Origin: Phoronis australis
Lineage: Eukaryota; Animalia; Phoronida
DNA: 64,000 nucleotides
Assembly (NCBI GenBank): GCA_002633005.1
Contig: NMRA01000008.1
Coordinates: 750,985-814,984, forward strand
Direction of reading: 5' to 3'
Shown here: one piece after another, positions 1,233 through 32,900 of the stretch
Layout: every line of letters starts with the position of its first letter
How positions within the stretch are numbered: position 1 is the first letter of the stretch
Notes under the pieces: generated by a model
Databases searched by the model: none
What the model was told of the DNA's origin: nothing
What the model saw: only the letters and a program-made list of their open reading frames with translations
Translations under genes and position numbers: made by a program

Positions 1233-4200
1233 ATGTCACGCTACTCAAGGCCTCCTAATACTTCTCTTTATGTGCGCAACGTCGCCCCAGGAACTAGGTA
1301 GTTGCTGTTATCTGTGACATAGAATTGATCAGTTCTTGTAAATTACTTACCTAGGACGTTATGATTAAACGTTTTGGTTTATGAAACCGCCCGTGAGTGA
1401 GAGCTAGTTCTCGCCACAGGCGTCCTCAGGCTCAGCTTCTGATCGTCCCCAATACACTATATAATACTACAAGGTATGACACTCCGAGTGTCATACCTTT
1501 AGTATTATATGTAGTGTATTGGGGACGATCAGAAGCTGAGGACGCATGTGGTTCTCACATGAGCCATGACTGACGACGACGTACAAAATTTGAGTTCCCA
1601 TTTCTGAATTGCATGTATAGATATATCCAAATTTTACTCAAAAAGAGTCCGTGGACATGTGGATTTTTCTACCCAGGCAAGCACAATCACTGAATCTTAG
1701 CTACCCTGGTTCTCAAAAGGATTGCCAAATTGTCTTTGCTGTCAGTGACATAAACATTTTGAAACATTTGCCAAAGAGCCCAAACTCCCACAGACAGCTT
1801 AAGGCTAAGTTGCTTTAATGCCACTCTTAGGACAGTCTTGGGTTATTCGAAATTTTACACCACCCCGGTCTATGCTGGTCATTAAACTTATATGGACAAT
1901 TAGAGCTTACTGAGGTGCATGCTAAATCTGGGAGTCAACTGACACTCAACTCCCCCGTTAATCCATTAAAGTGAAAAACATTTTAAAAAATGTCATTTGG
2001 ATGCATGATTCTCCAGCTTTTGAAACAAAGCATGGTTTCTTGTCCACTTTGAGAACGGAATCTTTTTAAGTTCTTGACGTGTGAGACAAACTTCATCTTC
2101 TGTATGTTTGTAAAGTAAAAATAAGACTTAAGTTTAATTTTACTGGCTGAACAATTGAGTGTGGAATAATTGTAATTTCATGGGTGTGACCTTGACGGAC
2201 TTATATGTTTTCCATATCTGACTTACCAAACAATCACTGGGGTCTAAAATTTTGGTCAATAATATTGAGAAACAAATTAATAGAGATTGAAACTATTTTA
2301 ATTTTGATTGAAGCCTTTTGATATAACGAAACTTTTTGCACTTTTGTGGCAGANTGTGACCTGAAATTTCTGGGTGCCGTTTGCTGAAAAAAAGGCCATT
2401 TTTGAGGCTCTAAAATTCAAATAACTCGAGAACCACCGAACCGATTTGAAAAATTCAAAAAGTTTTATAAACGGCATGTCTAAAGCTATCATTTAACACT
2501 CTTTTCAAGTGTTTCTGATGAAATTTGTATTTGGGTTTGCTCACCCTACCAAAGAGCCCAAACTCCCACAGACAGCTTAAGGCTAAGTTGCTTTAACTTT
2601 AATGCCACTCTTAGGACAGTCTTGGGTTATTCGAAATTTTACACCACCCCGGTCTATGCTGGTCATTAAACTTATATGGACAATTAGAGCTTGCTGAGGT
2701 GCATGCTAAATCTGGGAGTCAACTGACACTCAACTCCCCCGTTAATCCATTAAAGTGAAAAACATTTTAAAAAATGTCATTTGGATGCATAATTCTCCAG
2801 CTTTTGAAACAAAGCATGGTTTCTTGTCCACTTTGAGAACGGAATCTTTTTAAGTTCTTGACGTGTGAGACAAACTTCATCTTCTGTACGTTTGTAAAGT
2901 AAAAATAAGACTTAAGTTTAATTTTACTGGCTGAATAATTGAGTATGGAATAATTGTAATTTCATGGGTGTGACCTTGATGGACTTATATGTTTTCCATA
3001 TCTGACTTACCAAACAATCACTGGGGTCTAAAATTTTGGTCAATAATATTGAGAAACAAATTAATAGAGATTGAAACTATTTTAATTTTGATTGAAGCCT
3101 TTTGATATAACGAAACTTTTTGCACTTTTGTGGCAGATATTGTCCTTTGACCCCAAGAGGTCAGTGATGTGCTATGGGTCAAATGATTTTTTTAGAAAGT
3201 TTAGGTTTCGTGTGATTGTACGAATTTGATAATATAGTGAAGTACCCATAAGTAGCTTATTTATGACAAAAGTTAGAAACACATATAAAATTTTTAGGCT
3301 CAAGTGACCTCCAAAAATGGGTTCGGTTATGGAAAAAATTGAAATTCAAATATGGGTGCTGAAACTGGGGAGACAGGGCTTTCAGATGTGACCAGAAATG
3401 TCAATCTAATCACATTTTCTGTCTCTTATATAGGTTGACCTTTTCATGCAATTACCCAAATGTTAATTTGACATGGACTGAAACGGAACAGTAGTGGACG
3501 TGGGGGGGGCTAAATATGGGCATGTGTACAGGATTGAATAGAAACAGTGGCAACTGATGGTAATCCTGATTGACGAATCCATTGATGTCGAGTTATCGAA
3601 CTCCTTTGTTTTGGCATGTGCTACTCGCTAATTTGTGGGTGTGAAAATTAAAAAAAAATGATTTATTTTTCCAGTATGTCTGTTTCTTCAGGGCTTGGAA
3701 TTTTCCGCAGAAACACGGATTTCCGCTTTTTGGAAATGTGCTTTTCGCTTTTTTTATAATATTTCCGCGTAAAAAAAATCGGATTTGATATGAAATTTCC
3801 GCGGCAAATTCCTTTCTTACCGCGGCGTTGCAGACGACGTTCACCTCGGAAAGCGGAAGTTGCTCTTTATGTTTCGGAGGAACGTAAATTGTCAACATTG
3901 CCGGGGCATCTGGGTAAAGCGTGGTGGGATTTTCAATGGCGGCTCGTGTTATTGTTAAGCGCGGCGACAAATACTACCGCTCTGCAGCCAAAATTGTGCG
4001 GGTTGGGAGTGGACGGGCGAGCGAAAAGGACGCAGACGCATGTTACAGATGGTGGTAACGTTTTTTTTTTTTTTTAGTCCTCCCGATTTTTGTCGCGGAA
4101 AGGTTCACATTGACCATTTCAAAGGCTGGTTATCCGGCATGATTTGGGCCGTAAAAGTTTCCGCGTTTTTTGTCATTGGTCATTCCAAGCCCTGGTTTCT

Positions 4201-7200
4201 TACAGATGCAACTAGATTCTTTTGTTGATTTTGAATACATGCTATATTGCTTAACAGTCATTTACATGGGTCCCGCATTTGGAGAACCAGTTTTCTCTAT
4301 TGAATGACTGGCAACAAACTGGTTCTCAGAATCTGGGACCCTGTAAATTACTTTTGCCCTATATTTATGGAATGTCATTGTGTTAACTAGTCTTTAGCTT
4401 GGCTTTGTTAATTGCAGTTCCACTCCGTTTATCTGTGTTCCCATTTTTGGTCTTATTCCAATGCCTGTTTGTGTTTTCTTTGTTTCTCAGACCCGAAGAG
4501 TTGCGCAGTTTATTCGGTAAATATGGTCACCTGTCAGACGTCTATATTCCACAAGACTATTATACAGGCAAGGAACGTGGGTTTGCTTACATACAATATC
4601 CTTCTGTATTTCCTATCAGAGACTGAATTGAATTTCAAAGTTCTGTTTTGTTGTAATTTTAAGAACTCTTTGATTTGTTTTTAGTAGAGAGTATGGAGCC
4701 GAGGTAAAGTTTACAAGCAAGTTCTTAGAGTATACTTGAAAGTGGCTTGGAAGCATTAAACTCGTACAAAAGCAGGCAAGAGTTTGCAAGCCCAAGTGCA
4801 AGATTTCTCATAGGGCGTCGTCTACCAATACAGTACAAGATCATTAAACAAGAAAAGCACGTATTTAAACAAGAAAAGTGTACTTGTGGGAATAACTGCT
4901 TTTGTAAGCTAAATAAATCTCGGCAAGTTAAAGTCACAGTCACAGATGAGAAGTCACCTAGAGCCACTAGTCGTCAAACAAGTTTTTTTCAGTACAAGTT
5001 GCCAGGACTGTCAAGTCAATATTCATTTAAGGGCAGTTTCAAAATCTTTAAATATGAGCCACAGGCTCGTTTCACTGATAAATCTTCAAAAAAAAATTCC
5101 ACTCTCTAGTTCCGGTTTGTCTTCCGAAGCGCCCTGTCAATCAAGGTCAAGTCACTGTAAAGGCACGTTGTCAAGGAAACGGAATGAATGATGCAAGCCA
5201 CAGCGCAGAATAATAAGTCCACTCGCGAGTAGGGTAAAAGTCTTAATTTGGAACGCTCCATCATTTAAATCTTGCAAGCAAGAAACAGTCCAGGCGAGAT
5301 TGGTGTATTGTCAAAAATCGCTAACTTCAAATGTAAGGTGAATTCTTGCGTAGAAAGGCAGGCTTCAGTGAGGTAAATCCTCCAGAGAAAATTTTCATGA
5401 ATTATTCACGCGACTTCTTAAAAATTGCTGGACGTCACTAAAGAGTATCGGACAAGCAAGAAAGAGCTTTACATCGAGGCAAAAAGTAGGCAAAATGGTA
5501 ACAAGATTTCCGTGTCCGAGAACAGTGGCTGGGGTGGGACATGGTGCATCAGACATCTTGGCTACTGATCGAACCAGTTCTATTATATCCTATTGTGTCT
5601 CGACATCTTTTTACAGACAAGTATTAAAATCATTCTTTTGCATTCTTCAAGTGAAATTACTTTAAACGCTTAGATGAAACTCTGAAGTGTAATTTTGTAG
5701 TCGATAATCAACAAGATCTGTTTTTTTTTTAGCTAATGACCTTTGTGCACTGGTCTCCATGTGATTCAAACTTTAAGTGCAACTTGAATTTTGACTATCT
5801 CTAAGTGATGAAATGTCTCAATTGTGTTTGATCAAAGGTTTAGTTGTAGCTGTGCCTTGTGTGTTTGATAACTCCTTAACAGTCAGAACATTTGACCACC
5901 CGCGAGATGCTGAGGATGCCCTGCACTACCTGGACAAGACACTACTTTATGGCAAGGAGCTGGAAATTGAGTTTGCCAGAGGAGACAGGAAAAGTAAGAT
6001 AATACGTTAATCAGTTCTAATCCTACGTTATTGTTTTCAACGTTTGCAATTGCGTATGAGGAATACATCTAGTCACAGAAGGCATCCTTACACCCATGAA
6101 CAGCGTTGTACTGTAGTGGAGTTGGGGAAAGGTTTATTTGGTATTTTGCTGTTATATTTTCACCTACGTTTGCACAGTTTTCTACATGCCATTATTTTCT
6201 TGTTTCGTCTCTTGTGTGCTTCTGATCAATGCAACGATTCAATTGTACTTGTGTTTTGCTTACTGGGATATTCGTTTTTCGACTGGGGGGCATTATGCTT
6301 TCTGTTCTTCGACATTCACTCTTCTTTTGCCCATGATAACCCCTAACTATTTCTCAATAATTAACCTCTAGTTAACTGATTTCTTCGCCAGCACCCCGTC
6401 AGATGGTTTCCAGAGAGCGCAGGAGGTCACCAATTGGTGATCGTTATGATCATCGTCGCAGGCGCCGGTCACGTAGTTACAGCCCAAGGTAATGGCTCAC
6501 GGCGGTCGACAACTGTGTTTATGTGTGTGTTTGTTGATTTCTATAATTGAGAGGTAAGATTTGTCTGCGTTTTACTCTTCTAGCTGCACATCAGATGCGA
6601 AGAAGAGAATCGGGTGGACGCATGGTTGGTCGAGGCAGACGTCCACGGTATGGCACTAGACTGCAAACTCATGTTTAAGTAGCAATGCCATACGCAATAG
6701 TACTGTTGCTCCTTTGTGTTCACGGTAATTTGCTTGGTCAATCACTGTTCCAGGCATAGATTTGACAAAATGAATTCTTGCTTGACGTTTGAAACACGAG
6801 TTTGTAGCTTTAAGCAATAACAGTTGTGTGTAAAACGGGAACTCTGCCATGTGGCACTGAATGTAGGCCTTGGATATGAACACAAAGCAGTCTACTTTTT
6901 AGGTGAATGGGTTTTTGCAGGCGTGGAATGCTGTTCAATAGGTGTGGCACCAATTGTTTATGATTTAGAGCTGCTAGTGTTTAAACATGCCATAAACCGT
7001 GTTTTGGTCGTGGGGTCCGGTCTTGATACTCAAAATTATTTTTAGCATTTTCCGTTCTTCTTTTTTTGTTTAAACGTAAGATAAGTGTGTATTAGTCTGT
7101 GCGCATGTACTTTATGGTTTGCGTATATGAGTTTCTAGTCCAAGTTTGCTCTTGATAATCGTTTGGTTCGAGCTACAAACTCTAGGATAAACACGAGATT

Positions 7201-10200
7201 TTTGCGTAAAAACTTTAAAAATTTGGGGTTCAGACTAAAAACTTCTAGCCTAATGGTGGAGTCATCAAGTTTCCCCTGGTGGCTGTTTTATTGTTTATGA
7301 TTTTGGCAAGTGGGTTCCGATCGAGGAGAGCATTGCTGACTTGCTATACACCACCTCGTGGCTTTTTAAGTTTGCTAGCATTGCTCCCTTTAGTGGGAAG
7401 TTTCGAGTGATCATCCCCTGTATCTGCACTGTATGCAATGCACATGGTGGGCACATATCAATGTTCCGTGTTGCTCTTGTGTTACAAATTGCCAATTCTT
7501 TCCGTTATTTGCCAGACAATCGCTGGAATCATGGCAGGTGACATTACCACCTATACATGCTTAATACAATCCACCTTTTATCGATTGGAGTTGGGCTTGG
7601 TTAGCATTGTATTTTGACTGTGACCGCAAAGGTTGCTACTTTGATTTCAGACTCGGGCTGATTTCAGAAGATTAGTTTTCTCACCAATAATGTCATTTTA
7701 AACACAACACTGTGTGACCGGGGCATGTCTGCTGGTAGTAGGCACTTACAGGGGTCTCGCATTTTGAGTTCAAGCAGTTTCCTACACTGAATAACGGCAC
7801 ATGAAGCTTGTTCTCAAAATTCTAGGCCCCAGCAGGTGACTTGCGAATGATATCTGCTTTCATCAGTGTGTTCTGATTCTTTCAACGCGAACTCATTTCA
7901 GGTATCGGTCCAGATCTAGAAGTCCATACCGCGGCAGGTGAGCATAACATCGCAGGCCAGAATAAAAGCAACTGTTTACCCTTCGGTTTCTGTTTTTTGT
8001 CGTTTTGATGCCTAAATTTTTTTATTTGATAAGGTTCGCCTTATTGCCAAATATTTACATTTTCTGAAAGTAAAAAACTTGTAGAATTTGATTTTTGACT
8101 TTATGCATATCTGTCGTTGATCAGGTCACATGACCATGTCTGTAGTAAAATTCTCGAATCAGTTTTCTGAATCTTTGTGTTATGCATGAAAATGCTGAAA
8201 TTTTTTTTTTAATGGCTCCTCATACAAAAGTGGGACGTTTTATAAACAATTCCAGCTGCGTTTTGGAGAACAGTCCTTAAATTGTAGCATCAGTAAGTTT
8301 CGTATGAATCCGATGAGCAATTTCTGAACTTTCATGTTCGGAAGTTGGCCAAACTTGGACATTTTCCCCTGCCATCTTCAGTTGAATGATTGTCTAGCTT
8401 TTTTGATACCAGTCATGTACTCCTAAGAGGCATGGACTTTTGCAAGTGTTTTTTTACTATAACTTAGAAGTCCTTATAGAGATGGTTTTGAGTAATGCCT
8501 GCCATCCAAGAGCTGGGTGTTTTGTGTCTTCCACTGTCTCCATTCACTAGACATTGGGTTAGGTAGTACTTACGAAGCATCCAAGGAAACACTGATGAAA
8601 AGACAGTTCTATTTCCTTTGTTTTGTATTATTTTGTTGTTCAAATGTGAATTACCCTCAGAGTGGTTTTCCTTACCTTCTGTTGTAGCAGACGACGTTCT
8701 TACAGTCGGTCGAAGAGTCGGTCCCGTTCATATGAACGTAAACGAAGTCCACATGAAAGTAAACGTAGTCCGTCGCCGAGAAGGTAGATTAATTTCTTTT
8801 CGAAGGGCTTTTTGTTCACGTAATCTTGTAAAATGTCACCAATTAATTTCATACCAAAATAATTGCATAAACTGGTCTTTTTTCTCTTTTCAAAGGCCTG
8901 TTTTAAATGCCCATAATATCTCAAAACAAAGCATTTTATCGGTGTTACTTAGTCGAGTAGTTTTCAAAATCAGATGCATTTTGACGGAACCTTACATCTT
9001 GCCAGAATTGTTTGGCACTTTAGTCTAGCATTTGTCGCCATAAAGTTTTTGTTGGTCTTGCGTCAGTTGAGACATTATTGCCTGCAGCTGCTAATTATTT
9101 ATTTACGTAATGTACTTAAGCAGTAAGCCATGATTTCATCAGCAAAAGGTGTCGAAATTAAACCAGAATTTGTTAGAGGCCCATGAGCATTGCTATCCAC
9201 GAAAAGAACCGCATAGACAGGAATTGGGCAAAAAAGTGATTATGATAAAAGCATAGCATTTTACAACGTAACACTACAAAAATGACAAAAAAGCCTAGAA
9301 AATGTGAAACAAGTTTAGCTGTTGGCATTTATGTGTTACCAAAAAATCAGAAATTGCTGCCTTGATGTTTCTTGAACACTTGCTGCATACTAGGAATAGC
9401 TACAAGTTCAAGCCTAAGTATTCACACACAAAAGGATCTGGAATTTCCCGTCATGGCTGCTGGGCAGATGCCAAATTCATCGGCTGAGTAGTCGTCTCTC
9501 ATGACCTAAGAATGAAGGGAAATTAACACGAAAGTTTTTTCTTATTTTTTTTCAATATAATACATACGGTACAGATCACACAATTACACAATGCAATAAA
9601 TTTTTTGTTTGTCAATGATCAGTTAAGGTCAATTTACAGTGCTGATATGTACAAAGGCAATTTAACATTAAAAGTAACTAGAAAGATTATTGTCACGGCG
9701 TGACAATAACGGACTCTGCGCGTGCGTATTACTGGAATTATTATGGGAAGTTACTGACAGCAACCCGTTTACCAATATGAAAAGGAATTCTTTAAAATTG
9801 TAGGAGAAATTACATATTAATTTTTTGATGACCTCTCCACTAATTGACCTCTTCCGGTGCATTATGAGCCCTGATGAGGGAGTAATTGTTAACTCGATTA
9901 AAAGTGTGGTTAATGCTAATAATCTCAGATGTTTTACTTTAAGCACTTCAGAATACAAGATGAATGAAGTGGTCAAACTTTCAGAAGAAAAATGCACCTA
10001 ATGACCCCATAGGTGCACCAAATGACCTGAAAATTTAGAATTCAAACTCAATCGCACTTAGTAAACAGATACGTAATTCTGAAGTCTCTAGCTCAAAATT
10101 TTAGTTTGCACTCAATGACCTTTGACCTATTTTTTCTGATTGGTTAGGCCTATTGCGAAGTAAAGTAGGGTATTCAATTGGCATGTTGACTTACACCAGT

Positions 10201-12470
10201 GTGCTGAAATTGAAAAGAATTCCTTGAAAAACGTAAGAGATATAACATTTTGAACGTTACATGACCTTTGCACTAATTGACCTTATCCGGTGCATTTTAA
10301 GCATCTTTAGGAGAATTATTGCAAAGCCCATGGAAAATGTGTTTAACGCTGAGAATCACAGTTGTCTAACGGTTGACACATCAGAATACTTGCTGATTGA
10401 AAAGGTCAAATTTTCAGAAGAAAAATGCACCTAATGACCCCATGTTTGCACTAAATGACCTGAAACTTTGGATTCCGATTTGATTTACCTGTGGCAATCA
10501 GACCTGTCAATTTGAAGTGTCTAGCTCAAAATTTTAGTTTGCACCTAATGACCTTTGACCTATTTCACCTGATTGGATGACCCGATTACTTAGAAAAGTA
10601 ATTTTTTAAATTGTCATGTTGACTTATACCTGTGCACCGAATTTGAAAAAGATAGCTTTAAAACTGAAGGAGGAGTAGCATTTTGAAAATTATATGACCT
10701 TTGCACCAAACGACCTCTTCCGGTGCAATATGGAATATGATTATATAACCAATCAAAATTTATATACTGTCAAAAGTCATATGCTGAATTTAAAGACCGT
10801 ACCTGCACCCAATTTGGAGTTATTAAGACTCAAAGTTGGTCGGAAGTAGAATAAGAATAAGAAGAATAAGAATAAAATTGAAGAAAACCCAGGAACAACA
10901 GTACTCTGTGCTTACACGCGCAGAGTAAAAAAACAAAAAAGGTCAAGAGCTTGCCAACGCTCTATAACTGAACCATACTTGATTTTGTTTATGTATACAT
11001 ATACTTTTCAGTAGAAATGTACAATGCAACTTTCTTTTTAAAACAGTGCAGGGCAGGGATTTTTACACTTCAGCCTTTGTTTATAAATGTGCTCCTTGCC
11101 AAGGCAAAGAACCATGCTTTGTAAAACTACTTCCACCTGAACACCAAACAGAACTGATTGGAAGGACATTTCTAAACTGTCCAACAGCATCTTCGAGCCA
11201 GTTATTTACATTAGTCCAAAACTGTTGAGCGATGTTACAAGACCAGTACACATGGACAATAGATTCACTTTCATCTATTAAAGCAAAAAGTGCACAATGA
11301 GCTATCAATTATGTCTGCCACCATTCTGTAGTATCCGGGAGATTTAATTTTTCTCTAACATTAACAGGAAAGATAGAATGGTGGCAAGCCATACCGTAAT
11401 TAGTTTTTGCGACCCTAATAGTTATTTCCAGTCAATATGTTTTAACAGGAGACAGTGTGGCTCAATGGTTAAGAGCTCCAGACTCCTGCATGAGAGACCT
11501 GGGTTCAAATCCTGGCTTCACTGGCTGACACTCGAGCATTGCACAATGATGTCCCTATTCCTCTGAACTCGGTCTTACTTGTGAATGTGTGCAAGAGAGT
11601 GAATGAGAACCTGTTCAGGACCATGCTGTATATTAGCCCTTGGCTAAAGCGCGTTTCCTTTATTTAAAAAAAAAAAAAACAGAATTAGCTGTTGTGACGA
11701 GGAAACAGGATCTTGTCTAATTATTGGTGTTTTGTACTGTATTTAGTCTTGGAAATTTATTTCGCGAATTTAAATTTCATCCAGCATTGTAGCTTGACTG
11801 GTTTTTATGCGCCCACATATTTATATGTGGTCGCATATTGCCGTCTTCTTTGTCTGGGCTTCCATCATCCACAGCTGTATCATATAAACCCCTCACGAGA
11901 TCTTGATGACATTTGGCAGATGTGTTCCTATGAAGCTGACGACGAATTTCGGACCGCTACAACTACTGGTGTGCCCCCTAGTTGCAATTTTAGTTTTTTA
12001 TGCTTACCTCTGTATCTTCGTAGGTCCTCGACGGATTTTCATAAAATTTGGCAGTGAGGCATCTTTTAGTGGTATGATTGTATCCTCCTGTTTCCGGATG
12101 GATTCGAGGTACTTTGCACCACCAAGTGGCCATTTTTACTGTTTTTGATTCTGTTTTTTGGCATCCAGCTCTATGGCTATTTTATGTTCAAATAAACACC
12201 CCCTAGAAGCACACCGTTTGCGGTGCATTTGTGGGCACATTTCAACGCTCCGTGTTGCTCCTGTTGTGGCCATTTTGTTTGGAACTGGTTTCACGTGATT
12301 GGACGTCACAGTGAGTGGTTGTAAATATTAGCTTGATGTAAATCATTTATACTGTTTCACCTAGGTCCAGATCATACAGCCACAGTCCCGCCCACGGAAA
12401 CGAAGGAGGTTCCCCTGCCCCCAGGCAGTCACGCAGTCGGTCACACAGCCGTAGCCGTACTCCTACCTAA
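1233..12470 (+). CDS. SRSF10: Serine/arginine-rich splicing factor SRSF10/12-like, paralogue 1 (RRM + RS domain; 202 aa with exon 4a, 191 aa with exon 4b)
   Basis: Exons: 1233-1297, 4491-4595, 5890-5993, 4a 6392-6488 or 4b 6584-6647, 7902-7937, 8688(or 8691)-8783, 12365-12470 (TAA). Translation [34 protein letters not shown]...[22 protein letters not shown]...[11 protein letters not shown], followed by RS/SP repeats. Splice phases are consistent, and the N-terminus and AT-AC intron position match the SRSF10 family. Confidence 0.93.
1414..1551. repeat. Foldback palindrome / hairpin MITE in intron 1
   Basis: Arms of ~60 bp (ctcagcttctgatcgtccccaatacacta...gtatgacactc c gagtgtcatac...tagtgtattggggacgatcagaagctgag) around a 1-nt centre. 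Confidence 0.8.
3689..4194. mobile_element. Non-autonomous DNA transposon (MITE) with CAGGGCTTGGAAT terminal inverted repeats
   Basis: Ends are cagggcttggaat...attccaagccctg, flanked by a GTTTCTT direct repeat on both sides. The interior repeats ttccgc/gcggaa motifs. Confidence 0.8.
4262..4348. mobile_element. Small (~90 bp) palindromic MITE; relatives at ~7747-7835 and ~21071-21170
   Basis: tttacatgggtcccgcatttggagaaccagttt...aaactggttctcagaatctgggaccctgtaaa. A similar ttttgaga...tctcaaaa core recurs at the other two sites. Confidence 0.55.
4596..5889 (+). other. U12-type (minor spliceosome) AT-AC intron, paralogue 1
   Basis: The 5' end is ATATCCTT (4596-4603), the branch point TCCTTAAC is at 5873-5880, and the terminal AC is at 5888-5889. 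Splicing CA|A restores Q-F in RNP1 (RGFAYIQF). Confidence 0.95.
4685..5630 (+). promoter_or_regulatory. Conserved CAAG-rich intronic element with a second U12 5' splice site (5585) and ATTAAA (5623); putative autoregulatory cassette
   Basis: Aligns by eye in several blocks with 17830-18750 of paralogue 2. About 22 CAAG by manual count, ATATCCT at 5585-5591 and ATTAAA at 5623-5628. Confidence 0.7.
9677..10928 (-). mobile_element. Non-autonomous Helitron/Helentron-like element (family A)
   Basis: The minus-strand 3' end has the hairpin TTATTGTCACGCCGTGACAATAA (9687-9709) shortly before CTAGT. It has subterminal inverted repeats actctgcgcgtg / cacgcgcagagt and an internal diverged tandem duplication. 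A second copy is at 31231-31825. Confidence 0.75.
11448..11679 (+). mobile_element. tRNA-derived SINE
   Basis: A box TGGCTCAATGG (11458), B box GGTTCAAATCC (11502) and an A-tail. A related copy is at 28868-29080. Confidence 0.75.
11802..12265 (+). mobile_element. Helentron/HINE-like non-autonomous element (family B)
   Basis: Starts tttttatgcgcccacatatttatatgtgg and ends gtgggcacatttcaacgctccgtgttgctcctgtt (subterminal inverted repeat plus 3' hairpin). The same ends occur at 21363-23331, at 34632-35877 (minus) and as a 3' fragment near 7275-7482. Confidence 0.7.
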
Positions 12471-16042: not shown

Positions 16043-24621
<8,579 letters not shown>

Positions 24622-29900: not shown

Positions 29901-32900
29901 AAGATCTGGGGCCCGTTGTGAGAATTTGACTTAGGTTCTATGTTGACTTAAGCCTAAGATTTGTCTCAGCTTCCAAACTTTGAAGGCTTCCATACCCGGT
30001 AACTAAGTCGAACTTAAGACAAAACTTAAGCCAAACATAATAGCCTTCCTTGGAACGGATTTAAGACTAATTGGAAGTTTCATTTTAAAACTGACTTAAA
30101 TTTACTAAGATTTGTCTTAGCCTGGGAGTTTGATATTGGTCCTAGGTCTTAGCTAAGTCAGTTTTCATGGAACGTGCCCCTGGACTAGTTGTTATCAAAT
30201 AATATTTTGAAAAAACAGGGAGCCTTCACAACAATATTAGGAGCTTTTGAGAATTGAAAAGGGACAATTATGACAATCATTTTTGTCTGAAATCAATGAG
30301 ACTTTAGAATTTTTAAATGCTCATAGCATCCTCTACCTGCTCCACAAGATCAGTTCAATGTTGCAGACATGCAGCAGATTTCGATCCATGAAATAACCTA
30401 CAGAGTTTTCATAAATAGATGAAGCAATTATCACAAGAAGTCAACTTGAATCTTTTATAAACACCCCGTATAACTGGTGGTTGGAGAGATATATCAATTA
30501 CATGCAGGGTCCATCTTTTAACATCCCGTATAGCTGGTGGCTGTAGAGAAAAATCAATTGACCTATCGCAAGCACCGCCCCCTTGCGAAATGTCGACAAA
30601 CAAACGATAAGCTTTACCTGGCAACATGTTGTTTGTCGGGTAAAATGGCGACTTGGAAACGAAGGTGTGTCAAGAATGCTGCGAACTGATTGGTCACTTA
30701 AGCCATCACTCAAAGTCCTGGCGATAGGTCAATTACATGCCACATCCATGTTGTTGAATGTCTTGTAAATTTAATTTAGTTTCCAACAGCAAAGTTATAA
30801 CAAATTACAATTCAGGTCCATCGTTTAGATAAACCCTGAAGATTCAACACAATTTGCGACACCAGAGAATGACAAATCACAATTCAAATGCCTCTTTTGC
30901 AAAAAAGTGGTAGTAATGTTTTAATATATTCCACAATTAATTAAAAAATAAATATGTGCTATCATTACTGTAACTAAAAGTTGATCATTTTCTCTGACCA
31001 AAAGAGCTCATATACATCTGTTTATAAGCTCAGAACTAGTTTAGTTGTTTCATAGCTGCCACAAGAGTAATTCAGACATATGACTAAACAAGGTCCCAAG
31101 TTCTATAGTTAAACAGACACCAGTTCCACCTGGCTGCTGTTGATTCAATCTAATTTGCCATAAGAGATATAGCTATTTTAAGTCTGTCCATTTGAAACAT
31201 TCCACAAGTCCAGGGTACGACAAATTTCAAACTAGAAAGATTATTGTCACGGCGTGACAATAATGGACTCTGCGCGTGCGTATTACTGGAATTATTATGG
31301 GAAGTTACAGACAGCAACCAATATGAAAAGGAATTCTTTAAAATTGTAGGATAAATTACATATTAATTTTTTGATGACCCTTCCACTAATTGACCTCTTC
31401 CGGTGCATTATGAGCCCCGATGAGGAAGTAATTGCTAACTCGATTAAAAGTGTGGTTAATGCTAATAATCACAGATGTTTTACTTTAAGCACTTCAGAAT
31501 ACAAGATGAATGGTCAAACTTTCAGAAGAAAAATGCACCTAATGACCCCATGGGTGCACCAAATGACCTGAAAATTTAGAATTCAAACTCAATCACACTT
31601 TGTAAACAGATACGTAATTCTGAAGTCTCTAGCTCAAATATGGAATATGATTATATAACCAATCAAAATTTATATACTGTCAAAAGTCATATGCTGAATT
31701 TAAAGACCGTACCTGCACCCAATTTGGAGTTATTAAGCCTCAAAGTTGGTCGGAAGAAGAATAAGAAGAATAAAATTGAAGAAACCCAGGAACAACAGTA
31801 CTCTGCGCTTACACGCACAGAGTAATTAGGCCAATCTTTGACACCCGGCAGGTAGAGTTCGCAACACCTAGTGTAAATTCAGCATCGTTCATGATAGCAA
31901 AGTTCAAACCAGTCAGTCATTTTGAAACACCCCGTAGATGCAGCACTTACTTCTCCAGTAGTGTCATCACAGCAGGAGGTATGATGAGTATGGGTGCAGG
32001 CAAGAAGGCCCTCGTTAGAGCCGTCTCTTCCAGTGCCTGACAACAAGAAAAGAAAGTCACCATGAAAAGTTGACTGCGACCGGCATCAGACTGACCAGAT
32101 CAATGCCATCATTACGGTTGATACCGAGCAATGACTACGATTTTTGAAAAAATTGGTGCATTCCACAGCTAAACACAATCAGTTATTTCCTATTCATCAA
32201 ACAACAGTGCATAGATACGTGACATCAAACACTGGTGAGAACTCAAAGTGACTAGCTAGACGGGTAAAACAACATAAATACAATTGATGGAACAGAAACA
32301 TTCGACACACAACTCTTACTACCATAGTGGGAGCCCGAAGGTGACTTCTGGTCCATTCAGAATCATCAATGCTATAATGGTAAAAATTGTAAGGAAACCA
32401 ACAAAAATAATGGTAAATTGTTAGGAAATTGGCCAAAGACATTTTGATGGTTTTATATACGGAAAATGCTCACCATTGTTTGGAGGGCTACAGTATGGTC
32501 AAGTCAATCATCACTGTTTGGAGGGCTACAGCATGGTCAAGTCAATCTTCACTGTTTGGAGGGCTACAGCAGATGGTCAAGTCAATCATCACTGTTTGGA
32601 GGGCTACAGCATGGTCAAGTCAATCATCACAGTTTGGAGGGCTACAGCAGATGGTCAAGTCAGTCATCACTGTTTGGAGGACTACAGCATCGTCAAGTCA
32701 ATCATCACTGTTTGGAGGGCTACAGCAGATGGTCAAGTCAGTCATCACTGTTTGGAGGGCTACAGCATCGTCAAGTCAGTCATCACTGTTTGGAGGACTA
32801 CAGCAGATGGTCAAGTCAATCATCACTCCCATGTGCCAGGAGAATACCATGAAAATTCTCAAGTTTCGTAAAATAAAAAATTGATTATTTTGCTCTACGT

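Follow-up and report, generated by a model that had tools for sequence, protein, structure and literature searches.

In mammals, the gene of the splicing regulator SRSF10 carries a poison exon (exon 3) inside an AT-AC intron, which is entered from a downstream major-type donor, contains an SRSF10-dependent enhancer at nucleotides (nt) 17-60 and ends in a rarely used minor 5' splice site (Meinke et al. 2020, PMC7244321), a second minor donor likewise described in PMC8329584. Splicing of exon 3 to exon 4 in hepatocytes and control by temperature have been added to this system (Neumann et al. 2020, PMC7726792; PMC8522700). A different layout has been described in JNK2, where the hybrid intron between exons 6a and 6b pairs a minor donor with a major acceptor (Chang et al. 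2007, PMC1874599; PMC8329584), and incompatibility between the major (U2) and minor (U12) spliceosomes has been reported for 5 of 629 human clusters (PMC5740500). Here we analyzed a 64-kb stretch of the Phoronis australis genome (contig NMRA01000008.1, 750,985 to 814,984; the window, numbered from its first letter), which carries two tandem SRSF10/12-family genes on the + strand (coding starts at 1233 and 16043), each with an AT-AC intron that corresponds to the mammalian one and holds a CAAG-rich exon, E2b. This block is likely a very old switch through which SRSF10 limits its own amount.

The RNA data comprised a set of contigs (X1) and, from a single study, three stranded runs of short raw reads (X2, X3 and X4; counts separated by slashes follow this order), with about 18-19% of each run analyzed, and a splice joint was reported only if at least 3 reads at 2 starts crossed it. 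X2-X4 derive from the same species or a very close relative, because many reads on the second gene (paralogue 2) were at least 99% alike (305 of 446, 230 of 380 and 216 of 494 in the three runs), and those in the 90-95% identity class fit cross-mapping from the first gene (paralogue 1) plus a repeat pile-up. In paralogue 2, the coding part of exon 1 (65 nt, 16043-16107) was joined by GT-AG junctions either to the coding exon E2a (105 nt, 17625-17729; 16107^17625, 16/15/36 reads, 67 in all) or to E2b (894 nt, 17835-18728; 16107^17835, 26/28/14 reads, 68 of 135). Both were spliced to exon 3 (104 nt, 19260-19363) by AT-AC junctions, E2a through 17729^19260 (37/12/38 reads, 87 in all) and E2b through 18728^19260 (20/7/4 reads, 31 of 118), all of them on the sense strand and in all three runs. 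Read depth was 9-33 across 17807-18734 and 1-7 beyond the distal donor, on the sense strand only. Exon 1 is thus joined to E2a or E2b at major sites, and each is then joined to exon 3 from its own AT-AC donor. The E2b share varied between runs, both among 5' junction reads (62/65/28%; chi-square p=0.0003) and among 3' junction reads (35/37/10%; p=0.009), which fits a regulated event.

The same arrangement was found in paralogue 1. Its exon 1 (coding part 65 nt, 1233-1297, GT donor at 1298) lies outside the read-mapped stretch, and its end was seen as loose sequence before 4489 and before 4688; an X1 contig runs from the exon 1 end directly into 4688, which places the start of E2b (895 nt, 4690-5584) at 4690, in register with 17835, so that the exon 1-E2b joint is supported here by a contig. 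The coding exon E2a (105 nt, 4491-4595), part of the RRM, was joined to exon 3 (104 nt, 5890-5993) through 4595^5890 by 6/12/22 reads (40 in all) and one contig, and E2b through 5584^5890 by 4/0/0 reads (X2 only, 4 of 44 AT-AC junction reads); sense reads covered most bins of E2b in the three runs. An initial annotation of this DNA had picked out the CAAG block and the U12 donor behind it as a candidate autoregulatory switch. Use of that donor was borne out by the 31 and 4 junction reads in paralogues 2 and 1, at the very junctions it had named. Its view of the block as an extension of exon 2 has to be replaced, because the block is an exon of its own with a major AG acceptor, entered from exon 1 with E2a skipped. 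The choice therefore falls on one of two major acceptors, each of them tied to a minor donor of its own.

Both genes had the attributes of the SRSF10/12 family. Named database matches of exon 3 were mostly SRSF10/12 proteins from lophotrochozoans, RS-rich exons follow the RRM in both paralogues, and in a tree of only 69 columns, with 24 of 52 inner branches open, the paralogues were sisters (99/97) nested in a lophotrochozoan group (96/92, 98/92). A PDB search with exon 2 returned generic RRMs only, SRSF2 on top, and Rfam gave no matches across positions 1-26000. The AT-AC introns (4596-5889 and 17730-19259) were of U12 type, with an ATATCCT donor, a TCCTTAAC branch that lies 9 nt from the end (5872-5880 and 19242-19250), a terminal AC (at 5889 and 19259) and four AT-AC joints in RNA; judged by these splice signals, both would depend on U11/U12 small nuclear ribonucleoproteins. 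The second ATATCCT claimed for each intron was present at 5585 and 18729 (proximal donors at 4596 and 17730), the two distal donors aligned in register between the paralogues, and the distal U12 introns that they open (305 nt, 5585-5889, donor ATATCCTA; 531 nt, 18729-19259, donor ATATCCTG) share their AC acceptor with the proximal donor. Taken alone, ATATCCT is a weak motif: the two strands together had 19 matches where 10.9 were expected.

Between E2a and E2b lies a hybrid gap (94 nt, 4596-4689, and 105 nt, 17730-17834), which opens with the U12 donor ATATCCTT and ends in a major AG acceptor (4688-4689 and 17833-17834). In paralogue 1 the gap contains a pyrimidine tract, and its acceptor region ranked first among the 104 AGs of the intron, the profile picking an AG 2 bases upstream. 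No E2a-E2b joint was listed in either paralogue, nor any joint from E2a or from a GT of the gap into 17835, at the above threshold and with short reads. This is how exons 6a and 6b of JNK (MAPK8/9) and the TMEM87A/B genes work, with two major acceptors interlocked with two minor donors, a hybrid intron and either-or inclusion: each Phoronis gene likewise has one major donor with two major acceptors, two minor donors with one acceptor, and no listed joint across the hybrid intron. With one end for the minor and the other for the major spliceosome, the gap would be unspliceable and would enforce either-or use as in JNK, and E2a and E2b very probably exclude each other through this incompatibility. 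Unlike JNK, where two short coding exons alternate and a pyrimidine tract sets the default, a coding exon of 105 nt alternates here with a poison exon of about 895 nt. We do not class the locus as a member of the JNK type, since the two exons are dissimilar and bear no signal of duplication; an origin of E2b by duplication of E2a was rejected, because 65 and 214 out of 300 shuffles reached the alignment scores of 36 and 31. Since the poison exon is long, non-homologous and part of a splicing-factor gene, the layout sets amount and not isoform, and the junction reads show a U2/U12 hybrid either-or layout that turns a splicing regulator off.

The E1-E2b frame ends early in both genes, as the initial annotation had expected of the product: at a TAA (4757-4759) after 44 codons in paralogue 1 and at a TGA (17893-17895) after 41 codons in paralogue 2. 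These are the stops of the observed isoform, and not the read-through stops that had been cited. They lie 825 and 833 nt before the next junction, well beyond the 50 nt that mark a poison exon, and E2b holds 7 and 13 in-frame stops after exon 1. The paralogue indels ahead of the first stop (4690-4759 and 17835-17895) are both of 6 nt, which keeps the frame, and the short peptides are similar. E2b was rejected as a coding sequence, since no frame is open in both paralogues and a 125-codon frame of paralogue 1 is not kept.

Mammalian SRSF10 is the same gene with the same AT-AC intron, which likewise encloses a non-productive exon; in both, this exon starts at a major acceptor, contains an AAG-rich region (a putative enhancer in Phoronis) and ends in a second minor donor. 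The second U12 donor therefore has a mammalian precedent, because a minor 5' splice site ends mammalian exon 3 (PMC7244321), and the earlier claim of a donor competition unlike that of vertebrates does not hold. Mammalian exon 3 is entered via a downstream major donor that extends exon 2, whereas in Phoronis E2b is entered from exon 1 and the coding exon is skipped. Furthermore, the second minor donor is rarely used in mammals, where polyadenylation dominates (with exon 3-4 splicing in hepatocytes), whereas it took 31 of 118 AT-AC reads in Phoronis; the distal minor donor is in real use, so both splicing outcomes end in minor-type splicing. The exons also differ in size, about 895 nt and CAAG-dominated in Phoronis against about 360 nt in mammals. 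E2b resembles the poison exons of SR genes in being a stop-bearing alternative exon of an SR gene that has long been retained. The SRSF5 case, a rare instance of unproductive splicing conserved across animals (Lareau and Brenner 2015, PMC4379411), differs in that here position and a short repeated word are conserved in place of alignable sequence, and in that the exon is tied to a minor intron; the terms srsf10, srsf12, u12 and minor have 0 occurrences in PMC4379411.

The block itself is exceptional in composition. The counts of 22 and 29 CAAG given earlier were exact, but the expectation of about 4 was too low, since dinucleotide shuffles gave 8.7 and 7.9, with a maximum of 18 in 1000. All of them fall inside E2b (which has 34 and 42 [AC]AAG), with none in the 94/105-nt gaps, and the two blocks are the highest CAAG windows of the whole 64 kb. 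A third CAAG-rich window (32460-32830) is explained by a minisatellite with units of about 41-43 nt, in which GTCAAGTC occurs nine times. The block aligned between the paralogues with a score of 452 (maximum of 30 shuffles, 113), as had been proposed, whereas the interiors of the distal intron and of introns 1, 3, 5, 6 and 7 did not exceed shuffles. Identity over E2b was about 71%, short of the ultraconservation of SR-gene poison exons. The two E2b lengths are only 1 nt apart despite many indels.

To place the cassette among other animals, metagenome contigs were scanned for the exon 2 end followed by the donor. This gave 97 loci, 7 of which were dropped because the upstream frame was not SRSF10 exon 2; of the remaining 90, 50 had a whole intron by the first rule, 40 of them non-redundant, and with the window's two 42 introns were scored. 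A sense [AC]AAG cluster, reached by no more than 2 of 200 shuffles and with CAAG taken from the original finding, was present in 42 of 42 introns and in 0 of 117 controls (0/42 antisense, 0/36 upstream, 0/39 downstream). In addition, one of the three top acceptors of the intron stood just before the block in 27 of 42, against 6.3 expected. The protein of one locus (L074) is that of mammalian SRSF10 (68/68), those of four (L008, L022, L041 and L059) match stony corals (67-68), one is bivalve-like (L033, 65) and two are closest to annelids (L005 and L031, 63 and 60); for L006, L010, L044 and L046 sponges were the top named matches, and these loci grouped with sponges at 94/89, below the starred support level. 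In L074 the cluster lies in a 362-nt cassette with a BsrGI site ending at +16 and GTATCCT at its end, a match to the exon 3 in which Meinke et al. located the SRSF10-dependent enhancer.

A U12 donor closes the cassette in L031, L033, L048, L074 and the window and, by a looser match, in L005; the far end is a predicted major-type donor in the four coral loci and in two unassigned protostome paralogue families, and nothing clear was seen there in the sponge-like loci, L012, L028 and L049. Proximal donors were ATATCCTT in 41 of 42 introns, and its final T was absent from 6 of 7 distal donors. Internal RTATCCT occurred 10 times in sense and 7 times in antisense over the introns, a count uninformative by itself; with block ends drawn automatically, 4 of the 10 lay within -5 to 130 nt of one (1.07 expected), L033 was at -11, and paralogue 1 of the window and L005 were missed because too short a block had been drawn for them. 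In 14 of 14 family B introns and in L005 the U12 donor is followed 16-17 nt on by a major-type donor, which resembles the mammalian downstream donor. In the coral-like introns, an AAAG-rich block of about 900 nt ends in GTAAGT, and L008 has a second, smaller AG-plus-repeat patch near the intron 3' end. The U12 intron ends in AA in L006 and L060 and in AG in L048, instead of AC; the L060 protein is divergent.

Within bilaterians, E2b and mammalian exon 3 probably share an ancestral cassette, and the odds that this ancestry reaches back to sponges are about even. We are evenly divided on the broader proposal that an SRSF10 poison cassette in the U12 intron is ancestral to all animals, held in place by position and a short word, with plastic wiring and a word that co-evolves with the RRM. 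If it is ancestral, the wiring would range from either-or skipping in Phoronis to a downstream major donor in mammals and major-type end donors in corals and the two paralogue families.

As a stop-bearing exon that replaces E2a, E2b is likely a feedback switch: bound to the CAAG/AAAG repeats, SRSF10 would promote the use of E2b and thereby reduce its own output. An exon of about 900 nt with a weaker donor would need the repeats as enhancers, a role we consider highly likely, and SRSF10 is the probable binder, acting in negative feedback. Entry into E2b would need the major spliceosome only, and definition of E2a likely needs U11, so low minor-spliceosome activity would still favour the dead-end isoform. 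The E2b message would then be destroyed through nonsense-mediated decay (NMD) or retained unspliced; given the abundance of the isoform, we lean only somewhat towards NMD as its sink. The repeat words also bear on the binder. Two paralogue families found by the scan differ in their CAAG:AAAG counts, 202:2 in family A (10 of 10 anchored) and 50:214 in family B (12 of 14 anchored), and they co-occur (13 shared assembly prefixes; one metagenome may hold more than one animal). Self-recognition accounts more readily than a single outside factor for different words in co-occurring families. SRSF10 motifs have been given as AGAGAV and the selection motif AAAGACAAA (PMC8522700); the latter occurred 21 times in sense and 0 in antisense, in 16 of 42 introns, and AGAGAV and GAAGAA were not enriched in the introns (sense:antisense 43:40 and 22:19). 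A link between an exon-3 residue and the CAAG share was dropped, as independent lineages were few and exceptions were present.

Several observations weigh against this feedback reading. At steady state the E2b isoform is abundant, making up half of the paralogue 2 5' junction reads, a poor fit to efficient NMD, and the evidence for E2b in paralogue 1 is thin. The paralogue 2 gap contains a 7/9 match to the U12 branch consensus, 25 nt before the AG, so that its sequence alone might allow E2a-E2b joining. Of the 16 introns with AAAGACAAA, 12 belong to family B; the window E2b has 0 copies and only 1 and 3 AGAGAV, which makes a CAAG preference of the window RRM an assumption. As for the other animals, AAAG was added to the motif only after the introns had been looked at, the 42 introns are not independent (24 come from two paralogue families), and a further whole intron, in L060, is about 110 nt long, lacks the block and leaves no room for a cassette. 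Of 39 incomplete, unscored loci, 8 were viewed and no block was seen in L007, L011 and L043 (2.0-2.6 kb present, inspected up to 1.5-2.3 kb). No alignment of E2b with the 97 loci was found at E below 0.08, so common descent rests on position and motif, and RNA support for the cassette comes from the window, the other loci being sequence predictions.

The repeats of the same either-or poison exon could instead be read by Tra2 or another SR-like protein, which would be cross-regulation and not feedback. Drosophila Tra2 works via CAAGR repeats, as an enhancer when they are exonic, and its M1 element, like E2b, is a cluster of CAAG in the pre-mRNA of a splicing factor that serves negative feedback (PMC3245930); the window block, CAAG-dominated and without AAAGACAAA, would suit such a reader. 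M1, however, is described as an intronic silencer that causes retention (PMC3245930), whereas the Phoronis repeats are exonic, in an SRSF10 gene, and show no purine preference at the fifth base, which gives no support to the CAAGR link drawn earlier (CAAGR:CAAGY 10:12 and 14:15 in paralogues 1 and 2, 24:27 in the window). Over all scored introns, CAAG was followed by A 227, T 219, C 172 and G 65 times. As the mammalian counterpart is SRSF10-dependent and paralogue families of the same assemblies use different words, we consider a Tra2-type reader unlikely.

The feedback switch was also weighed against a mainly stable or nuclear-held pool of E2b transcripts, which might reflect slow splicing at the distal U12 donor, act as an SR-protein decoy or be the source of a 41-44-residue peptide. 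E2b made up 50% of 5' but 26% of 3' junction reads in paralogue 2 (Fisher p=0.0001), reads run on into the distal intron at a depth of 1-7, and the frame-keeping 6-nt indels before the stop would suit a peptide. Nevertheless, the stops lie more than 800 nt before the next junction, X2 and X4 depth at the E2b end is mostly explained by spliced plus retained reads, and in the 7 cassettes that have a distal U12 donor the first stop falls anywhere between codon 2 and codon 66, so that no peptide is conserved. Such a pool therefore appears quite improbable as the main fate of these transcripts.

More improbable still is the model of the initial annotation, in which exon 2 runs on as far as the distal U12 donor or polyadenylation takes place shortly after that donor. 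The distal donor is indeed in use, the ATTAAA noted behind it was present in both paralogues (5623 and 18743, 38 and 14 nt after the donors), in X3 junction plus retained reads explain no more than about half the depth where E2b ends, and short reads cannot phase whole molecules. However, 68 reads link exon 1 directly to 17835, and gap depth (about 1-5 in paralogue 2, by subtraction from bins, and 0-1.8 in paralogue 1) resembles the intron background, against 18-30 just inside E2b. Furthermore, around the ATTAAA sites of either paralogue, no pile-up of ends and no poly(A) loose end was listed. Finally, a transposon remnant or neutral cryptic exon copied in the tandem duplication is scarcely credible, even though repeats lie in neighbouring introns and the paralogues are sister genes, because the block is single-copy per paralogue in 64 kb and kept where other intron interiors are not, its reads are sense-only in contrast to the both-strand pile-ups at 4310-4341 and 17017-17048, and the same kind of cluster is found in distant animals.

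Every part of this circuit has a precedent; we did not find the combination, or its apparent age across animals, in print, and the listings searched in open-licence PMC and bioRxiv showed neither a hybrid-intron poison exon nor, outside vertebrates, a poison exon of SRSF10, although supplements or subscription papers could report one. RNA extends the SRSF10 minor-intron circuit of mammals to a lophotrochozoan, and the sequence pattern extends it further, to coral-like and sponge-like genes; SRp38 was found only in bony vertebrates among the species of an earlier survey (PMC3173450). It is debated whether regulation or neutral processes account for the persistence of minor introns (PMC10639083, where Meinke et al. 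is cited among the references only); an ancient cassette, if true, would give a minor intron a regulatory reason of long standing to be kept. Deeply conserved unproductive splicing is described as rare (PMC4379411), and the Phoronis case is of use in being directly testable in tractable invertebrates; the difference in repeat words between paralogues also provides a natural test for co-evolution of RRM and target. In practical terms, several public SRSF10 gene models appear to be wrong through or around this intron. P0010, P0007, P0092 (Capitella), P0100, P0106, P0107 and P0125 appear mis-spliced, with extra residues where exon 2 should meet exon 3; the P0010 insert is Q/K/S-rich, compatible with a CAAG block. 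Capitella has two adjacent models on one scaffold.

Other features of the two genes were also observed. Paralogue 1 has a second alternative pair, with exon 3 joined to 6392 (4/2/1 reads) or to 6584 (3/2/22 reads and a contig); the exons 6392-6488 and 6584-6647 have similar first residues and look duplicated. Of their paralogue 2 counterparts (about 20030-20226 and 20330-20398) only the second was seen in loose ends; the first appears to be interrupted, although its 3' end and donor can still be aligned. An RS exon of paralogue 2 at 23400-23536 is longer than its paralogue 1 counterpart (8690-8783) by a 21-nt unit repeated about 3 times. Lastly, long local duplications and shared repeat copies lie in and between the genes (1750-3140, 21880-22900, 9680-10900 and 31230-31820), and the pieces at 4310-4341 and 17017-17048 that attract reads of both strands are short repeats.

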